From positions 1-43,714 of IMG/VR virus record IMGVR_UViG_3300031920_000119: a stretch of DNA of 43,714 bases; one strand, written 5' to 3'. The position numbers and the translations under genes are program-made. Below are positions 1 through 34,108 of the stretch, piece after piece. Each line of letters opens with the position of its first letter. Position 1 is the stretch's first letter. A model generated the notes under the pieces. The model searched no databases, was not told where the DNA came from, and saw nothing but the letters and a program-made list of their open reading frames with translations. Source of the stretch: a virus.

Positions 1-131
1 CCGCTGCGGTCACTCCGGTCGTTGCACCCGCTGCGGTCACTCCGGTCGTTGCACCTGTGATCGCTCCGAACCCCGCAATACTTAATCCTGCCGCGGCGCC
101 AATCAATCCGGCAACAAACTTACCGTTTTGA
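1..131 (+). CDS. 3' end of the wrap-around ssDNA-binding protein gene (continuation of 43008..43714)
   Basis: nt 1-55 are identical to nt 43660-43714. In the continuing frame it encodes PAAVTPVVA repeats, then VIAPNPAILNPAAAPINPATNLPF and a stop (TGA 129-131). The C-terminal ...LPF tip resembles the C-terminal tails of SSB and T7 gp2.5. Confidence 0.7.
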   Translation, partial: AAVTPVVAPAAVTPVVAPVIAPNPAILNPAAAPINPATNLPF

Positions 132-3100
132 TACCGACATTTGACTTTGAAACATATTCAGAGGCGGGTTATAAGTTTGACCCGACCTCTGGGTCGTTTC
201 GACCGTTACAGGCGGGAAAACCCGGTTTAAAAGGTATTAACGCGCCAGTATACGCCGAACACATGTCCACACGTGTAATCTCTCTTGCATTCGATTTACT
301 TGACGGCTGCGGTATAAGATTGTGGACACCGGTTCGGTCAGCACCCATAGAATTATTTAATCTCATATGGTCAGGTGGTGAGCTCGAAGCACACAACAGC
401 GGCTTTGAATTTAATATCTGGGAGTACGTATGCCGTCAGCGCATGGGGTGGCCAGAACTGCCACTCGCCCAGTTAATGTGCAGCATGGCGAAAGCGCGGT
501 CGCAATGTCTTCCGGGCGGACTTGGTAAAGTGGCGACCATAGTCGGCGGTGAACAAAAAAACCCACGGGGCGCACACCTGATACGGCTGTTATCTGTTCC
601 GAAGAAACCAACAAAAAATGATCCGATGACGTACAGATCATTCGAAAAATACCCGGAGTTATATTATGAAATGTACGACTATAATGATCGGGACGTCGTG
701 TCCGAAAAGAGTGTATCGTCTATGCTCCCCGACCTGGGCACCACTGAACTCGCTGTGTGGCGGTTAGATCAACGTATTAACGCACGGGGGGTACAAATAG
801 ACACGGAAGGTCTGGACGCCTGTATAACGCTATTTAAACAGGTCGAGCTTAAATACACTGCCGAGTTACAACAGATAACCGGTGGAGCGGTTCAGACCAT
901 CGGGGAAATGGCAAAACTCAAGGCCGGGGATATGTGGGCGCAGAGTATGGGGGTAAACCTTCCCAGTTTCGATAAACCAAGTGTCATCGACGCCCTGGAA
1001 CGTACCGACCTGCCGGCACCGATACGTCGAGCACTCGAGATCCGGCAGGGGATTGGCGGTTCCGCAGTAAAGAAAATATTTGCACTACACCGTTACTTAA
1101 ATGCTGACGGGCGTATCCGTGATTTATTTGTATACTGCGGCGCTGAACGCACCGGACGGTGGGCAGGCAGAGGGCCACAACCTCAGAATTTACGGAACGG
1201 CGGACCAGACTCGATACAGTGCGACACGTGTGGGTCTCACAGTGTAATGGTCGATAATATGCCCGCGTGCAGGGTATGCGGAACGCTCACACGTCTCGAA
1301 CGTGTAGAATGGGGTAATCTACCCGCTAAAGCGGCACTTGAGGACATACTCGCATACGGCGTGGATCGTCTTGAGCACGTATGGGGTTCAGCCATCAGTC
1401 TTATAGGGTCTGTAATGCGGTCGTTATTTGTCGCCGCACCCCTTCACGACCTGATATGCTCGGATTACTCAGCCATTGAGGCGGTAGTCCTGGCAGCACT
1501 GGCGGGTGAGGAGTGGCGGCTCGAAGTCTTCCGAACCCATGGTAAAATTTACGAGGCATCCGCGGCCCATGCATTTAACGTGCCATTGCAGGAGATACTC
1601 GACCACCGCGAGCGTACGGGAAAACACCACCCCCTGAGAAAAAAAGGGAAAGTGCGAGAATTGGCATGTTTTACCCACGATACGCAAGTGTTGACAGACG
1701 TTGGATATGTTGGTATAGTGGATGTTAAATCAACACATTTATTATGGGACGGTGTGGAATGGGTAAAAAACGACGGGGTAACATACCGAGGCAAAAGAAA
1801 AATATTAAAATTGGATGGTGTCCGGGTAACCCCGGAACATCTAATCAATATCAACGGTTCTTGGATGGAGGCAAGGGAACTCGTTTCAAACAAAAGTATG
1901 TTGAGCCGGGCGTTGGTGACAGGTTCGGAGAGTATACCGTTGTTAAATACGAGAAACGAGGGCAAAGAAGGGGTGCCGTGTGTACGTGTACGTGCGGTTC
2001 GCGAAGATTTGTTGATTTATCTAACCTATATATGGGTAAGGCTACAAGGTGTGGCAGTTGCGGCAGGGATAAAGCGACCGATACGAGAGTCAAACTATAC
2101 TCGAAATACGCACACATATTACCAGACACCGGGCACAGACGGCGTCTTGTCAATAGATTACGTGCGGCTATTACCAGGTGTCATAGCATCAATAGCAAGG
2201 GTTACCCGAATTACGGCGGTCGGGGTATTAGGGTGGATAAAAGGTGGCTCGGGAAAGACGGCGCAGGAAAATTCCTCAAGCACGTTATCACCCTCGAAGG
2301 ATGGAACGCCCCGTCACTTGAAATGGATAGGATCGATACGGATGGCAATTACGAACCGAATAACCTCCGGTTTGTTACTAAAGCCCAAAACTGTCTTAAT
2401 AAAAGAAGCGTACAAAAAATGCAAAAACGAATTGATGAACTTGAAAGGCGTTTACGACATTGTAAATGCAGGGCCTCGAAACCAATTCACGATAAAAACT
2501 GATAGTGGGCACTTACTCGTCCATAACTGCGGATATTCTGGATGGATAAACGCGTGCAGACAGTTCGGCTACACTGGTACCGATGACGAGATAAAAGCGG
2601 ATGTATTATCCTGGCGTGCAGAGTCCCCGAACATTGTGGAAATGTGGGGCGGTCAGTGGCGTAAAGAACCTGGCGTCTGGCGTTTTACACCCGAATTATA
2701 CGGAGTTGAGGGTCAGTTCATACAGGCATGTCTATACCCTGATACCGAACGCCTGTTCCGAGACCTGACGTTCGCCTATGACAGTGCCGCAGACTCACTC
2801 TGTATTCGTTTACCATCTGGCAGAGACCTTGTGTATCACTCGCCACGGTTAAACAAAGGAATAGACCCCAGACGGCTCGATGTGTGGAAAATATCATATA
2901 TGGGCATTGATTCATACACCCACCGGTGGGAACGCATACAGACATATGGTGGGAAACTTACCGAGAATATCACACAAGCTGTGGCACGAGATATACTTGC
3001 CGCCGCCATGCTCAGACTTGACGCAGCCGGGTACCCGATTGTACTGCATGTGCATGATGAAGTAATATGCGAGGTACCGCACGGGTTCGGCAGTATCGAA

Positions 3101-3196
3101 GAACTCGAAGCAATAATGATGCAACGCGAGCCATGGTTTATCGATTGGCCAATCAAAGCGGCCGGTGGATGGCGCGGACATAGATATCGAAAATAA
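128..3196 (+). CDS. Family A DNA polymerase with N-terminal 3'-5' exonuclease domain, interrupted by an intein
   Basis: Exo motifs DFETYS, NSGFEFNIW and YNDRDV. Pol motif A is SDYSAIEAVV. Motif B, RKKGKVRELA/CGYSGW, is split by the insertion. Motif C is VLHVHDEV. The TTG start at 128 overlaps the SSB stop (tTTGa), and no in-frame ATG lies upstream after the stop at 83-85. Confidence 0.9.
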   Translation: MIPTFDFETYSEAGYKFDPTSGSFRPLQAGKPGLKGINAPVYAEHMSTRVISLAFDLLDGCGIRLWTPVRSAPIELFNLIWSGGELEAHNSGFEFNIWEYVCRQRMGWPELPLAQLMCSMAKARSQCLPGGLGKVATIVGGEQKNPRGAHLIRLLSVPKKPTKNDPMTYRSFEKYPELYYEMYDYNDRDVVSEKSVSSMLPDLGTTELAVWRLDQRINARGVQIDTEGLDACITLFKQVELKYTAELQQITGGAVQTIGEMAKLKAGDMWAQSMGVNLPSFDKPSVIDALERTDLPAPIRRALEIRQGIGGSAVKKIFALHRYLNADGRIRDLFVYCGAERTGRWAGRGPQPQNLRNGGPDSIQCDTCGSHSVMVDNMPACRVCGTLTRLERVEWGNLPAKAALEDILAYGVDRLEHVWGSAISLIGSVMRSLFVAAPLHDLICSDYSAIEAVVLAALAGEEWRLEVFRTHGKIYEASAAHAFNVPLQEILDHRERTGKHHPLRKKGKVRELACFTHDTQVLTDVGYVGIVDVKSTHLLWDGVEWVKNDGVTYRGKRKILKLDGVRVTPEHLININGSWMEARELVSNKSMLSRALVTGSESIPLLNTRNEGKEGVPCVRVRAVREDLLIYLTYIWVRLQGVAVAAGIKRPIRESNYTRNTHTYYQTPGTDGVLSIDYVRLLPGVIASIARVTRITAVGVLGWIKGGSGKTAQENSSSTLSPSKDGTPRHLKWIGSIRMAITNRITSGLLLKPKTVLIKEAYKKCKNELMNLKGVYDIVNAGPRNQFTIKTDSGHLLVHNCGYSGWINACRQFGYTGTDDEIKADVLSWRAESPNIVEMWGGQWRKEPGVWRFTPELYGVEGQFIQACLYPDTERLFRDLTFAYDSAADSLCIRLPSGRDLVYHSPRLNKGIDPRRLDVWKISYMGIDSYTHRWERIQTYGGKLTENITQAVARDILAAAMLRLDAAGYPIVLHVHDEVICEVPHGFGSIEELEAIMMQREPWFIDWPIKAAGGWRGHRYRK
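1667..2527 (+). mobile_element. Intein (287 codons) inserted in PolA motif B
   Basis: Begins with Cys (CFTHDTQVLTDVG, block A). Block B is VRVTPEHLI (TxxH). Block F/G is GVYDIVNAGPRNQFTIKTDSGHLLVHN, followed by the +1 Cys (CGYSG). Removing it restores ELA-CGYSGW, matching the ELAxGYGG type of motif B. Confidence 0.8.
1744..2502 (+). CDS. HNH-type homing-endonuclease-like ORF nested in the -1 frame inside the intein (start codon uncertain)
   Basis: 252-codon ORF in frame 1, while the polymerase/intein is in frame 2. Motifs are GDRFGEYTVV..CTCTCGS..V....L..G....CGSCG, YPNYGGRGIRV and LEMDRIDTDGNYEPNNLRFVTKAQNCLNKRS, as seen in free-standing phage HNH endonucleases. ATGs at 1744 and 1759 have no clear SD. 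Confidence 0.6.
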   Translation: MGRCGMGKKRRGNIPRQKKNIKIGWCPGNPGTSNQYQRFLDGGKGTRFKQKYVEPGVGDRFGEYTVVKYEKRGQRRGAVCTCTCGSRRFVDLSNLYMGKATRCGSCGRDKATDTRVKLYSKYAHILPDTGHRRRLVNRLRAAITRCHSINSKGYPNYGGRGIRVDKRWLGKDGAGKFLKHVITLEGWNAPSLEMDRIDTDGNYEPNNLRFVTKAQNCLNKRSVQKMQKRIDELERRLRHCKCRASKPIHDKN

Positions 3197-3279
3197 TGCC
3201 AGTGGCATGTGGTTTGCAATATAGAACGCGCGTGAACCGCATATCACCTTATTATTTTTCTTTTACAAGGAGCTAAAAT

Positions 3280-3501
3280 ATGTTTGATGAAATTGTAGAA
3301 AATATTAACAGTCGAATTAAAAATCAACCTGATTCTCGTTGTGCCACAGACGATGAAGTTAGGATTTGTTGGCTGGTGTCAGAAGTTAATACACTAAGAG
3401 AAAAGGTCAAAGCTGCTGAAAATTGCCTCGTCTGTTCTGTTATAGCTGACCCTTTTGAAGTATGCCATAATACTCTGGAAATTTTAAAAAACGAAAAATA
3501 A
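3280..3501 (+). CDS. hypothetical protein (73 aa)
   Basis: ORF with SD caaGGAGctaaaatATG. It lies in an AT-rich segment downstream of the polymerase. Confidence 0.6.
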   Translation: MFDEIVENINSRIKNQPDSRCATDDEVRICWLVSEVNTLREKVKAAENCLVCSVIADPFEVCHNTLEILKNEK

Positions 3502-3547
3502 TAAAAACATGCAACGAGCTTCGCTACGCTCGTCGGTGATGTTGAAC

Positions 3548-3571
3548 ATTAGCTCGGATAAACGAGCTAAT
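3548..3571 (+). terminator. 9-bp stem hairpin (attagctcg-gataaa-cgagctaat), possible intrinsic terminator
   Basis: Perfect 9-bp inverted repeat 47 nt after the stop at 3501. The T tract is weak (tatt). A second, smaller hairpin is at 3514-3533. Confidence 0.35.
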
Positions 3572-3670
3572 TATTCGATAATGCGGATAAAAAATATTAC
3601 TTAATACACTAATTAAAACAAACAGTTACAAACTATTTTCATTTTATTTCACTTTTTATTGAAAAAAGGC

Positions 3671-3699
3671 TTGACATTAATCTAAAACCCCTGTAGTAT
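3671..3699 (+). promoter_or_regulatory. sigma70-like promoter TTGACA-N17-TAGTAT
   Basis: Consensus -35 at 3671-3676, a 17-nt spacer and -10 tagtat at 3694-3699, preceded by an A/T-rich UP-like tract. Confidence 0.6.
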
Positions 3700-3742
3700 A
3701 GTATACATGATCAAAACAAAAACACATAACAAGGAGAATAAA

Positions 3743-3955
3743 ATGACAATCGAAATATACAAAAATCAATACGAAAACACAATGGTAACTTTTGGAAATT
3801 TTGACATTGAGATTTTTAAAAATCATAAATCTTTTGACGACAGCACAGAAGCAGAATTGAAAGAAAATTTTTTCTTTGAATTTTCAGATACAGAAGAGTC
3901 AAGAGCTGCATGGATTGTAATAATAGAAAAAGCAAAAAAAGAAAATTTAATCTAA
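3743..3955 (+). CDS. small acidic hypothetical protein (70 aa; alternative ATG at 3707)
   Basis: SD AAGGAGaataaaATG at 3743. The protein is D/E- and F-rich. The ATG at 3707 would be nearly leaderless relative to the predicted promoter. Confidence 0.6.
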   Translation: MTIEIYKNQYENTMVTFGNFDIEIFKNHKSFDDSTEAELKENFFFEFSDTEESRAAWIVIIEKAKKENLI

Positions 3956-3970
3956 AATCGGAGAGAAATC

Positions 3971-4153
3971 ATGAAAAAATTTAAAATGGTAAAGGCAGGA
4001 AAAGAAAGTTTGATCACAAGAACAGAAGTTATTGAAATTATCGGACAAGAGGGATTTGATTTTATCAAAGAAGATTTTGAAAAGCATGGACATAGTAAAA
4101 CGTCGCATGTGATAGACGATATTGAAATATTTTTTATGGCTCAGGACATATGA
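3971..4153 (+). CDS. small acidic hypothetical protein (60 aa)
   Basis: SD cGGAGagaaatcATG. Same AT-rich cassette. Confidence 0.6.
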   Translation: MKKFKMVKAGKESLITRTEVIEIIGQEGFDFIKEDFEKHGHSKTSHVIDDIEIFFMAQDI

Positions 4154-4320
4154 AAGGCGGAAAAAGAAAGGGTGCGGGGCGTAAGCCCTCACCTAATAAT
4201 AAACAATCGTATGCAAATAAATTCTATCCTGAAAAAATAAAGTTTTTACAGAGCTTAAGGAATGCTGCAAAGTGGCTTGATGAGGCAATAGATGAAAAAC
4301 GAGAGCGTGAGATCCGCTAA
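4150..4320 (+). CDS. small basic protein (56 aa), possible ribbon-helix-helix DNA-binding protein
   Basis: Not in the ORF track because it is under 60 aa. Its ATG overlaps the upstream stop (ATGA). Sequence is MKGGKRKGAGRKPSPNNKQSYANKFYPEKIKFLQSLRNAAKWLDEAIDEKREREIR. A basic N-tail followed by a strand-helix-helix-like pattern is the basis for the RHH call. Confidence 0.45.
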   Translation: MKGGKRKGAGRKPSPNNKQSYANKFYPEKIKFLQSLRNAAKWLDEAIDEKREREIR

Positions 4321-4394
4321 TAAAATAATACAGATCGACGTCGCTGCGCTTGCGACTGATCATCACATTGAATCGTAGATTACACTTAATAATA

Positions 4395-4802
4395 TCAATA
4401 CGCAAACGGTGTATCCCAACGGGGGCCAAATTTATCAACCGCCTGGAACATTGTTTCCATTTTTTCAGGGGATACGCCGTCCGCTTCCATCATTTCCTTA
4501 AACACGTCATGCACAGCCTGTGCCGGTTCGTTTTTATCATCACAATAAACGTCATGTATAACCGATGGTCTTCGGTACTTACCGATAAAAGGTGAACCGA
4601 TTACACGCCAGAAAAATTTCGGTATACTCGCACCATCTATTTTACGACCTTTTGCCGCGTACCATAACTTACCGGATTTATCGCAGTACCATATGTCTTC
4701 GAGTAGCATCATTTTACGTGGATCATCCTCGCACCATTCCACTCTTACCGGTCCACTGAATGTTCCAGGTTTTAATTCTGTCGGTTTCATTCCCCCACCC
4801 AT
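4395..4802 (-). CDS. DUF1353 family protein
   Basis: Motif DGASIPKFFWRVIGSPFIGKYRRPSVIHDVYC is typical of DUF1353. It is the last gene of the late operon. Confidence 0.7.
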   Translation of the reverse strand: MGGGMKPTELKPGTFSGPVRVEWCEDDPRKMMLLEDIWYCDKSGKLWYAAKGRKIDGASIPKFFWRVIGSPFIGKYRRPSVIHDVYCDDKNEPAQAVHDVFKEMMEADGVSPEKMETMFQAVDKFGPRWDTPFAY

Positions 4803-4806
4803 GTTA

Positions 4807-5055
4807 TTATTTTAAAAGCTCAACGGCTATTCTTTTGAATAACCATTCACATTCGGCTATCAACATATCTAATTTTTCTGGACCTGTAGGTCGTAGTCTA
4901 ATGTTATTAAAAACTTTTGCTATTTTACCCTTTGCCCCCTCGACAGTGTCGTTTTTCATGTTGGATGATTCTTGTTCGGTTTGTATTTCTAATCGCCTCT
5001 CTAATTCCTTCGCGATTACCGCCGCCTTATCTGGATCAACTTTAATTTTAAACAT
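4807..5055 (-). CDS. hypothetical protein (82 aa)
   Basis: ORF co-oriented with the tail genes and abutting its neighbours. AT-rich. Confidence 0.55.
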   Translation of the reverse strand: MFKIKVDPDKAAVIAKELERRLEIQTEQESSNMKNDTVEGAKGKIAKVFNNIRLRPTGPEKLDMLIAECEWLFKRIAVELLK

Positions 5056-5303
5056 TATACCCCCTCGAAGCTATTAGATTTGGAACCAATTCCATTAGGT
5101 TCTCCAGCATCATCATCAATAAACCAAGCATTGCGCATTGATCTATCTGTTGGAATTTCACTATCATCAACAATCCAATAGGGGAGACCCTCTGGCGTGT
5201 CTTTTTTTGCAATAGCCTTTATACCAAAAGTAATCAGTGCTTGCCGAGCCGGTGTGATAATGCCGACTGTATTATCATTATTTTTAAAAATTATCTTTTT
5301 CAT
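5055..5303 (-). CDS. hypothetical protein, possible tail fibre accessory/assembly protein
   Basis: Lies immediately downstream of the tail fibre gene. The assignment rests on position only. Confidence 0.5.
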   Translation of the reverse strand: MKKIIFKNNDNTVGIITPARQALITFGIKAIAKKDTPEGLPYWIVDDSEIPTDRSMRNAWFIDDDAGEPNGIGSKSNSFEGV

Positions 5304-33585: not shown

Positions 33586-33851
33586 TACATGAAGACAAAC
33601 ACCTTGAAAAACAGGCAGAAATATACCTGAAATTAAAACCGTTCATACGGCGATCAGGTAACCGGTTAATTTGGGACCCACAGACCGACGTGGTATTCGC
33701 ACCCACATTCGAGCAGTTCCTCGCGTTGCAGGACCGTCCGGTACTGACAGAGCGTTGTCACCCTGAACGAATATTCCCGATATACTCACAAGAGATAGGG
33801 CGCGCATTACGTGACGGCCAGACGGAAACGGTAGCAGGTGAGGACAAATGA
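33582..33851 (+). CDS. hypothetical protein (89 aa; start at MIHEDKH)
   Basis: SD GGGAGAcgacagcATG. The track ORF starts at 33498 with GTG. Confidence 0.55.
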   Translation: MIHEDKHLEKQAEIYLKLKPFIRRSGNRLIWDPQTDVVFAPTFEQFLALQDRPVLTERCHPERIFPIYSQEIGRALRDGQTETVAGEDK

Positions 33852-34108
33852 CGCGCAGAGGCCCGAAGTTAAAACCAAACCGTAAGGTGCCATATGGCAC
33901 CAGGCTCCGGCCGGATCAAATTGCATGGTTACGTAAACAGGGTCCACGTGCCGCCGCTCATGAGATCGAACGGGCACTTGACATGCGTATACATTATCTG
34001 TTACGGCCGGTTGAACTGCGGTGGTCAAGTAAAACCGCCCAGGAACGTATGATCGCCCGTAAAAAACCAGGCTGCGGCCGGTGGGGTAAGAATAAGGGGG
34101 TAATATAA
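33848..34108 (+). CDS. hypothetical basic protein, possibly RHH-like DNA-binding
   Basis: ATGA coupling to the upstream gene. The RHH call rests on the pattern YGTRLRPDQIAWLRKQG..AAHEIERALD and is weak. Confidence 0.5.
   Translation: MTRRGPKLKPNRKVPYGTRLRPDQIAWLRKQGPRAAAHEIERALDMRIHYLLRPVELRWSSKTAQERMIARKKPGCGRWGKNKGVI

Follow-up and report, generated by a model that had tools for sequence, protein, structure and literature searches.

Two described systems come closest to the locus reported here: the promoter-early stem-loops (PeSLs), which are mobile regulatory cassettes of T4-type phages (Arbiol et al. 2010, PMC2839356), and anti-CRISPR (acr) operons with an anti-CRISPR-associated (Aca) regulator such as Aca14, a ribbon-helix-helix (RHH) protein reported in July 2026 (bioRxiv 10.64898/2026.07.27.740549). 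The locus lies at positions 3240-4330 of the IMG/VR virus record IMGVR_UViG_3300031920_000119, whose full 43,714 bp are called the window below; the record is complete and carries direct terminal repeats. The locus holds an accessory open reading frame (ORF), orf73, followed by a promoter, a leader and three tightly packed small ORFs, orf70, orf60 and orf56. We consider it reasonably likely that the phage obtained this region horizontally, as a self-contained cassette for early expression that rests on a portable regulatory module and has an RHH regulator linked to it.

Like a PeSL, the element combines a strong sigma-70-like promoter with AT-rich DNA upstream of it and ends in a Shine-Dalgarno sequence and start codon; stem-loops that may correspond to the PeSL terminator lie nearby. 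It likewise precedes ORFans in a hypervariable region. The PeSL arrangement of promoter, Shine-Dalgarno sequence and ORFan is found here too, each cargo gene having one relative. In both cases about 100 nt of conserved sequence can be a recombination substrate, and the element is duplicated or inserted by recombination within itself (here in contig L046 as compared with L060; other contigs are given below by their L numbers). In contrast to PeSLs, however, the window, at 44 kb, is not a T4-type phage and encodes a family A DNA polymerase, and it holds one copy of the element rather than about 50. The hairpins here lie about 100 nt upstream of the −35 hexamer, outside the stretch conserved with other phages, whereas the PeSL stem-loop is inside the promoter. 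An ATG at the start site with a CA-rich leader, frequent linkage to an RHH gene and sharing between unrelated phages are all seen here, and none is described for PeSLs (PMC2839356).

Shared with acr-aca operons are a strong promoter for early expression, cargo that is small and variable and, at the end, a small DNA-binding regulator of dimeric type, whose strand-helix-helix core is colinear with that of Aca14. Unlike Aca14, which has an N-terminal helix, the orf56 family has a GGKRKGAGRKP arm at that place; the type of inverted repeat associated with Aca14 (TGTATATG..CATATACA) is not conserved over the −10 hexamer here, and there is no known acr gene in or near any cassette examined. The cassette is a new variant of PeSL-like and acr-aca-like designs; its architecture is like that of acr-aca operons, and it fits a role against host defences without proving it.

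Three further systems share single traits with the locus. Messenger RNAs with a 5'-terminal AUG (Beck, Fleming and Janssen 2016, PMC4965119) and the leaderless lambda cI transcript likewise have an AUG at the expected start, a pyrimidine at −1, an A at +1, a CA-rich sequence and a later Shine-Dalgarno-led start; in contrast to these, the whole unit here is a mobile phage element and its start site is a predicted one. In archaeal viruses a conserved early regulatory sequence marks sets of small, fast-evolving accessory genes (Bhoobalan-Chitty et al. 2024, PMC11065993), as here, although the present system is a bacterial sigma-70 one and the sequences are unrelated. Phage morons resemble the cassette as units with their own promoter and terminator. 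To our knowledge, classical morons are not thought to be mobile via their own regulatory sequences.

A portable promoter and leader

With 31.4% GC, compared with 46.8% genome-wide, the region has the lowest GC content of any 1091-bp stretch over all 42,624 positions, which bears out the preliminary description of about 1.1 kb of visibly AT-rich DNA. The GC content is 34% in orf73, 30% in the intergenic DNA, 26% in orf70, 31% in orf60 and 40% in orf56. All features listed in that description (a 73-aa ORF, two hairpins, a promoter, ORFs of 70, 60 and 56 aa and an ATGA overlap) were recovered in place, and its claim that the cassette has a promoter of its own also stood, the site being intergenic and conserved in other phages. 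Each of the four ORFs has a plausible ribosome-binding site. The cassette is compositionally foreign, with its own promoter. The features that make up the promoter, the leader and the genes behind them are as follows:

3630-3670, plus strand: AT-rich T-tract/A-tract 5' of the −35 hexamer, resembling an UP element; the upstream part of module A, conserved in the window, L005, L046 and L054 and partly in L011
3671-3699, plus strand: sigma-70-type promoter TTGACA-17-TAGTAT, a 10/12 match
3705-3742, plus strand: module B, a CA-rich unstructured leader (RNA fold with a minimum free energy (MFE) of 0), in six distinct phage contigs
3707-3709, plus strand: ATG at the predicted transcription start, followed by an AAGGAG Shine-Dalgarno sequence at 3731-3736
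3743-3955, plus strand: orf70, acidic cargo protein 1, 70 aa (82 aa from the ATG at 3707), pI 4.5, with AAGGAG 7 nt upstream
3971-4153, plus strand: orf60, acidic cargo protein 2, 60 aa, pI 5.5
4150-4320, plus strand: orf56, basic 56-aa protein, pI 10.3, overlapping orf60 by ATGA, with a GGKRKGAGRKP arm and an RHH-like core

As hexamers alone, the promoter is unexceptional: the region has 7 promoter-like sites where 8.9 are expected, and 11 sites in the genome match at 10 of 12 positions or better. It is credible because it is intergenic, has an UP-element-like tract upstream and is conserved at the nucleotide level in other phages. Alignment resolved two modules. Module A comprises the AT-rich upstream tract, GRCTTGACA and a WATCTAAWA spacer, and is present in the window, L005, L046, L011 and L054; L005, L046 and L011 have the same −35 hexamer, the same WATCTAAWA spacer motif and the same −10 position as the window. 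Module B is ACATGATCAAAACAAACACACATAA followed by the Shine-Dalgarno sequence, and is present in the window, L005, L046, L041, L042 and L047.

An exact-pattern scan of IMG/VR for the leader returned six distinct contigs: the window, L005, L041, L042, L046 (with L044 and L060) and L047. The gene behind the leader differs in each of the six. The five other contigs, all from uncultured phages, carry the promoter/leader module at about 80-87% nucleotide identity to the window. Between the window and L005 the 76 nt before the ATG, which hold the promoter, are 87% identical and the leader is 81-87% identical, whereas identity is 54% at third positions of codons in the adjacent RHH gene and 52-57% in the flanks, the proportion of differing synonymous sites (pS) being 0.72 and thus saturated. 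The non-coding module has therefore been kept as tightly as constrained codon positions.

The genes behind the module are exchanged while the module remains. In L005 an 80%-identical orf56 gene lies behind nearly the same promoter and leader, and a 19-codon ORF replaces the two acidic genes; in L011 the promoter and the regulator are present with nothing between them. L046 carries two copies of the module 598 nt apart, and its near-identical relative L060 carries one. The two sequences (compared at L046, 3540-3728, and L060, 2221-2440) are identical up to a 17-nt microhomology, ATGAC.G.ATTAAAT.T, which is common to the 3' ends of the RHH gene and of a 58/63-aa ORF; L046 then runs into a second promoter and leader. 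The insertion lies inside the 3' end of the small ORF, so that its C-terminus now consists of the last eight residues of the RHH protein. In this pair the module was duplicated by recombination at short homology. Several contigs terminate at the element; breaks at repeats during assembly would have this effect.

The promoter with its 37-nt leader as a portable module, and the ATG at the predicted transcription start, are new here; the preliminary description had neither. Small early phage genes mostly lack a known function, and those that evolve fast are missed by sequence-based searches. Where a regulatory element stays nearly constant and the genes behind it are exchanged, it offers a handle on such genes that does not depend on their sequence, and it shows phages trading them.

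The ATG within the motif ACATGAT stands in a C-A-T context in every one of the six leader versions and starts 6 nt past the −10 hexamer, or 7 nt past it in the window. Transcripts of sigma-70 promoters normally begin at this distance from the −10. In all six versions, too, this upstream ATG is in frame, without an intervening stop, with the Shine-Dalgarno-led ATG, which comes 12 or 13 codons later. The frame is kept although two separate indels, of 2 and 1 nt, make the leader vary from 39 to 42 nt in length, and five of the six substitutions in the first 8 codons fall at codon position 3. Enhancement of leaderless translation by CA repeats 3' of the start codon is mentioned in a passage of PMC9031893 that cites Martin-Farmer and Janssen 1999, and E. 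coli is documented to have mRNAs that combine a 5'-terminal AUG with a Shine-Dalgarno-led start (PMC4965119). From the start-site ATG, the kept frame and the unstructured CA-rich leader, together with these precedents, we infer combined leaderless and Shine-Dalgarno-led initiation. With the start site as predicted, the first cargo protein would be made in two forms, of 82 and 70 aa. The upstream AUG being always in frame, it would add a tag of 12-13 residues (MIKTNTHK...) to any cargo. If the start-site ATG is used, the element is a natural, mobile case of leaderless and Shine-Dalgarno-led initiation on one frame.

Some promoters with related parts differ in the spacer. L041 and L047, which have the leader without an RHH gene, show the spacers CTCACAGTATATTACTG and ATCACATTGAATGATGT, each with a palindrome of its own (CAGTA-TAT-TACTG in L041, CATT-G-AATG in L047) that may be the operator of another regulator. 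On a bacterial contig (L061, 4605-4629) the same pattern of UP-like tract, −35 hexamer and spacer, AAAAAGACTTGACAAAAATCTAAAA, stands 5' of an apparent ribosomal RNA (rRNA) operon, recognized by spurious ORFs typical of 23S rRNA. This suggests that the phage promoter imitates a very strong host promoter.

The linked gene for a probable ribbon-helix-helix protein

The orf56 protein has 14 close homologues among 5.8 billion proteins, and its family was found at 32 viral loci. Relative to its relatives the ratio of non-synonymous to synonymous substitution (dN/dS) is 0.04, with saturated synonymous sites (pS about 0.72). The family is an uncharacterised phage family of about 55 aa. In the alignment a near-invariant GG.RKGAGRKP arm is followed by an alternating, strand-like segment, a helix, a loop bearing indels and a second helix. 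A profile of the family matched the dimeric PDB entry 2kke over the strand and the helices (E = 0.0035), with weak matches to the RHH domains of NikR and MatP. Two close members of the family match RHH_1 below threshold (E = 0.066). Among distant members, L028 and L029 gave further matches, all below threshold, to RHH_1 (E = 0.0014, 18.9 bits against a cut-off of 20.5), RepB-RCR_reg (5e-4), RHH_10 and RHH_7. Judged by these comparisons, the product of orf56 is very probably an RHH DNA-binding protein. The preliminary description had called the 56-aa protein RHH-like, and the strand-helix-helix alignment, the match to 2kke and the sub-threshold RHH models in relatives support it. A scan of a genome collection for the regulator gave only three distant matches, in metagenome-assembled genomes, and these offered no hint of a host. 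As a widespread but uncharacterised family of small phage proteins, the GGKRKGAGRKP-RHH proteins merit biochemistry.

When the family alignment (A3) was compared by hhalign with Aca14 of Pasteurella multocida, taken from Table S2 of the preprint, the two were colinear over 33 columns with a probability of 64% and 18% identity. These values indicate that orf56 shares the fold class of Aca14 and not its family membership. We considered orf56 as a member of the Aca14 family and rejected this on the same figures.

The genome of the window encodes a second protein of the family, the resident paralogue:

33848-34108, plus strand: resident paralogue of orf56, 86 aa, 53% GC, closing the rightward early operon and overlapping the ORF before it by ATGA

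It was found by a profile search of the genome (E = 2.2e-9) and aligns to the family with an hhalign probability of 97.3%. Its GC content of 53% compares with 40% for orf56. Its core, YGTRLRPDQIAWLRKQ..AHEIERALD, is very like the L011 protein, and it has the arm MTRRGPKLKPNRK instead of GGKRKGAGRKP. Small ORFs followed by an RHH gene at the end of the operon are thus a recurrent design in this phage. The family is also found inside many operons of unrelated phages. Since it ends the phage's own early operon and sits in ordinary operons, presence of the regulator is no marker of an anti-defence locus. This bears on the guilt-by-association search that the preliminary description had proposed for the 56-aa protein: the same promoter and regulator do recur with varied cargo in L005 and L011, but the occurrence of the family in ordinary operons makes the association unspecific.

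At each of the four resolvable loci an RHH gene adjoins the module-A promoter; it follows the promoter in L005, L011 and the window and directly precedes it in L046. The three phages with module B only (L041, L042 and L047) have no member of the RHH family in their records. This linkage between the RHH gene and module A argues that the protein acts on that promoter. A different reading is that the RHH protein is not the regulator of the cassette but has a general function, as an early-to-middle switch or in organising DNA. It would then duplicate the resident protein and have become linked to the promoter by travelling with it, the promoter being constitutive and strong. Consistent with this, the resident paralogue ends a native early operon, and most family members are inside operons without a promoter of the module-A type nearby. 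However, the adjacency in four of four loci has been maintained despite 45-80% protein divergence and a changed gene order, and with the family present in about 1 in 100,000 viral contigs it is far beyond chance. We therefore regard this alternative as unlikely.

Several observations weigh against a self-contained cassette that is controlled by its own RHH protein. No conserved operator was found at the cassette promoter, which also favours a protein with some other function. A palindrome, GTATA-G-TATAC at 3696-3706, spans the −10 hexamer and the start but is not kept in L005, L046 or L011. The occurrence of the WATCTAAWA motif before unrelated genes and before a likely rRNA operon means that it may reflect promoter strength and not an operator. 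The leader is absent from the other 32 records searched, namely 29 with an RHH-family gene (a further point for a protein that does not regulate the cassette) and 3 with cargo relatives, and the window has a single copy of the module. Conservation of the frame of the upstream ATG was observed in six related sequences with about two length classes and is, alone, statistically weak. For the orf56 protein itself no Pfam model reached threshold, and an AlphaFold2 (AF2) model of the monomer, with one continuous helix over residues 27-55, no strand and a predicted local distance difference test score (pLDDT) of 73, was uninformative. The transcription start, leaderless initiation and auto-repression are all things that we infer.

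The WATCTAAWA spacer had been a candidate for the RHH operator. It was dropped as unproven, since in a metagenome scan the motif also occurred within an ORF, ahead of a probable rRNA operon and ahead of unrelated genes.

Type II antitoxins often have RHH domains, so the locus could instead be a toxin-antitoxin or superinfection-exclusion module in which the RHH protein is the antitoxin or regulator and an acidic protein its partner. In a language-model atlas orf56 fell into unnamed clusters only, one look-alike cluster having CcdA in 18% of its members, and the distant family member L029 has a sub-threshold match to BrnA-antitoxin. We consider such a module very improbable and disfavour it: the order and the properties of the genes are wrong, since small acidic proteins lead and a toxin-like basic protein of 90-130 aa is missing; L011 has the regulator by itself behind the promoter, and L005 has it with just a 19-codon ORF; and no toxin family was matched.

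Cargo proteins and the question of anti-defence

Both cargo genes have a single relative. For orf70 this is P0016, with 71% identity and a dN/dS of 0.09. P0016 is the second gene after the module-B promoter in L041, behind a very acidic 116-aa protein, at the boundary to the portal gene. For orf60 the sole relative is P0018, a 55-aa protein that is colinear at 51% identity (E = 2.6e-5 in a full phmmer search of 1.84 billion representatives); a word-based search gave no relative of orf60. In L062 a strong promoter diverges from the terminase genes; P0018 is encoded first behind it, and a 105-aa acidic protein comes next. Two further candidates, P0019 and P0020, were rejected as relatives of orf60, being repeat or low-complexity proteins. 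The positions of P0016 and P0018 place relatives of both cargo proteins at immediate-early positions elsewhere. On this comparative evidence the cargo proteins are real, very rare and under purifying selection.

As modelled by AF2, orf70 forms three strands and two helices (pLDDT 78; predicted template modelling score, pTM, 0.60), and no clear match to a known fold was obtained: the best Foldseek hits in PDB and BFVD had E = 0.37-0.59, and the best VIA-align score over 48,161 chains was Z = 4.4. Solved anti-CRISPR structures matched at chance level only (AcrF1/F2 complex, E = 4.3; AcrIIC2, Z = 3.3), and the language-model atlas held no usable match for orf70. Structure prediction followed by Foldseek, the check put forward in the preliminary description, thus gave no significant match for orf70 and an uninformative monomer for orf56. 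The centre of orf60, EVIEIIGQEGFDFIKEDF, has sub-threshold matches to Nif11 and Nif11-like leader models (Pfam, E = 0.1; TIGR03798, E = 0.005, 17 bits against a cut-off of 32). Searches of Pfam, PHROGs, NCBIfam and PADLOC gave nothing meaningful for orf73, orf70, orf60 or orf56, and no named family for the cargo of the window, L005, L041, L042, L046, L047 or L062.

The two proteins next to the cargo relatives (L041, 5611-5958, 116 aa; L062, 5194-5508, 105 aa) are very acidic first or second genes of early operons without a family match. It is possible that they are DNA mimics or host-factor inhibitors.

The preliminary description had likened the locus to acr-aca and other anti-defence operons. 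Taken literally, this would mean that the acidic proteins inhibit CRISPR-Cas, restriction or other defences and that the RHH protein is an Aca-like repressor. The layout agrees with such an operon: a strong promoter is followed by small acidic ORFans as cargo and, at the end, by a small regulator whose gene overlaps its neighbour by ATGA. Promoter and regulator persist where the cargo differs, as L005 and L011 show. Relatives of the cargo are first or second in early operons, beside other very acidic small proteins. RHH proteins can be Aca regulators, as Aca14 demonstrates (bioRxiv 10.64898/2026.07.27.740549), and the orf56 family is colinear with it; in archaeal viruses conserved early regulatory sequences predicted anti-defence genes (PMC11065993). 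The link to defence itself found no support. Neither the cargo nor the neighbouring cargo of related cassettes matches a family in the four collections searched, the orf70 model has no significant match among solved structures, Acr entries included, the regulator lies outside the Aca14 family, and its own family occurs in ordinary operons, including the early operon of this phage. An operon of the acr-aca type is thus a reading that we entertain tentatively. A counter-defence role of the cargo is likewise a possibility to be held with reserve, early takeover or counter-defence being a reasonable class for these proteins.

Returning to the favoured reading, a horizontally acquired early-expression cassette with its own RHH regulator, we envisage that host RNA polymerase would fire the cassette promoter immediately after infection. 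The transcript would start at the AUG or within 2 bases of it and continue into the CA-rich, unstructured tract. Ribosomes could then load both in the leaderless mode and at the Shine-Dalgarno-led AUG 12 codons further on, in the same frame, giving very efficient translation of the cargo. The two acidic cargo proteins would act early on a host target, in takeover or counter-defence. The orf56 protein would dimerise as an RHH protein, place its basic GGKRKGAGRKP arm on AT-rich DNA and repress its own promoter, and the burst of expression would then be self-limiting, as with Aca proteins on acr operons.

A bolder form of this proposal, which we regard as doubtful, is that promoter and leader constitute a previously undescribed portable expression head of uncultured phages. 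Such a head would give an AUG-first transcript, on which the CA-rich tract would attract ribosomes ahead of the in-frame Shine-Dalgarno-led start, and any inserted gene would be expressed without delay; it would yield two isoforms of the cargo, one with a tag of the MIKTNTHK type, would be shut off by the RHH protein and would mark new counter-defence or takeover proteins, among them orf70, orf60 and the 116-aa protein of L041. If this is true, the element could serve as bait for such proteins, much like the early motifs of archaeal viruses.

Genomic surroundings of the cassette

The cassette lies 3' of the gene for the family A DNA polymerase (128-3196), which has 39-49% identity to polymerases of gammaproteobacterial phages from marine and other hosts: Vibrio 97.13, Shewanella SFCi1, Acinetobacter Scuro and Pseudomonas MR14. 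Scuro and MR14 have six or seven small unnamed ORFs between the polymerase gene and the convergent lysis/tail genes. Since these small ORFs are also 3' of the polymerase, the slot is a general position for accessory genes in this phage group. In GenBank phages no DNA resembling the cassette was found, promoter-leader matches being at chance level, and an Rfam scan of 3100-4500 gave no RNA family.

The remaining features around the cassette are:

3280-3501, plus strand: orf73, a 73-aa acidic accessory protein with an AAGGAG Shine-Dalgarno sequence, 3' of polA
3514-3533 and 3548-3571: two hairpins, MFE −28 kcal/mol, z = −4.97 against shuffles
4333-4361: weak hairpin between the cassette and the convergent late operon, −12 kcal/mol, z about 0, no better than shuffles

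Relatives of orf73 with 56-58% identity occur in two viral contigs, 3' of genes for SbcC-like ATPases. The gene is probably transcribed from the polA operon. The hairpins close the polA/orf73 transcription unit and insulate the cassette. The first hairpin has its T-run on the minus strand, and a terminator scan picked minus-strand 3535-3512. The T-run on that strand makes the first hairpin terminator-like against antisense read-through.

On the minus strand, two 82-aa ORFs (4807-5303) that end the late operon also have a low GC content, 36-38%, which extends the AT-rich island past the cassette on the opposite strand. The convergent DUF1353 gene, adjacent in L011 too, was considered as having moved together with the cassette; this was rejected, as the two DUF1353 proteins are not close. 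Within the polymerase intein, a plus-strand site at 1691-1719 (TTGACA-17-TATAGT, 11/12) is the joint-best match to sigma-70-like hexamers on that strand, and it lies just 5' of an out-of-frame HNH ORF at 1744-2502 (PHROG 374, E = 5e-33).

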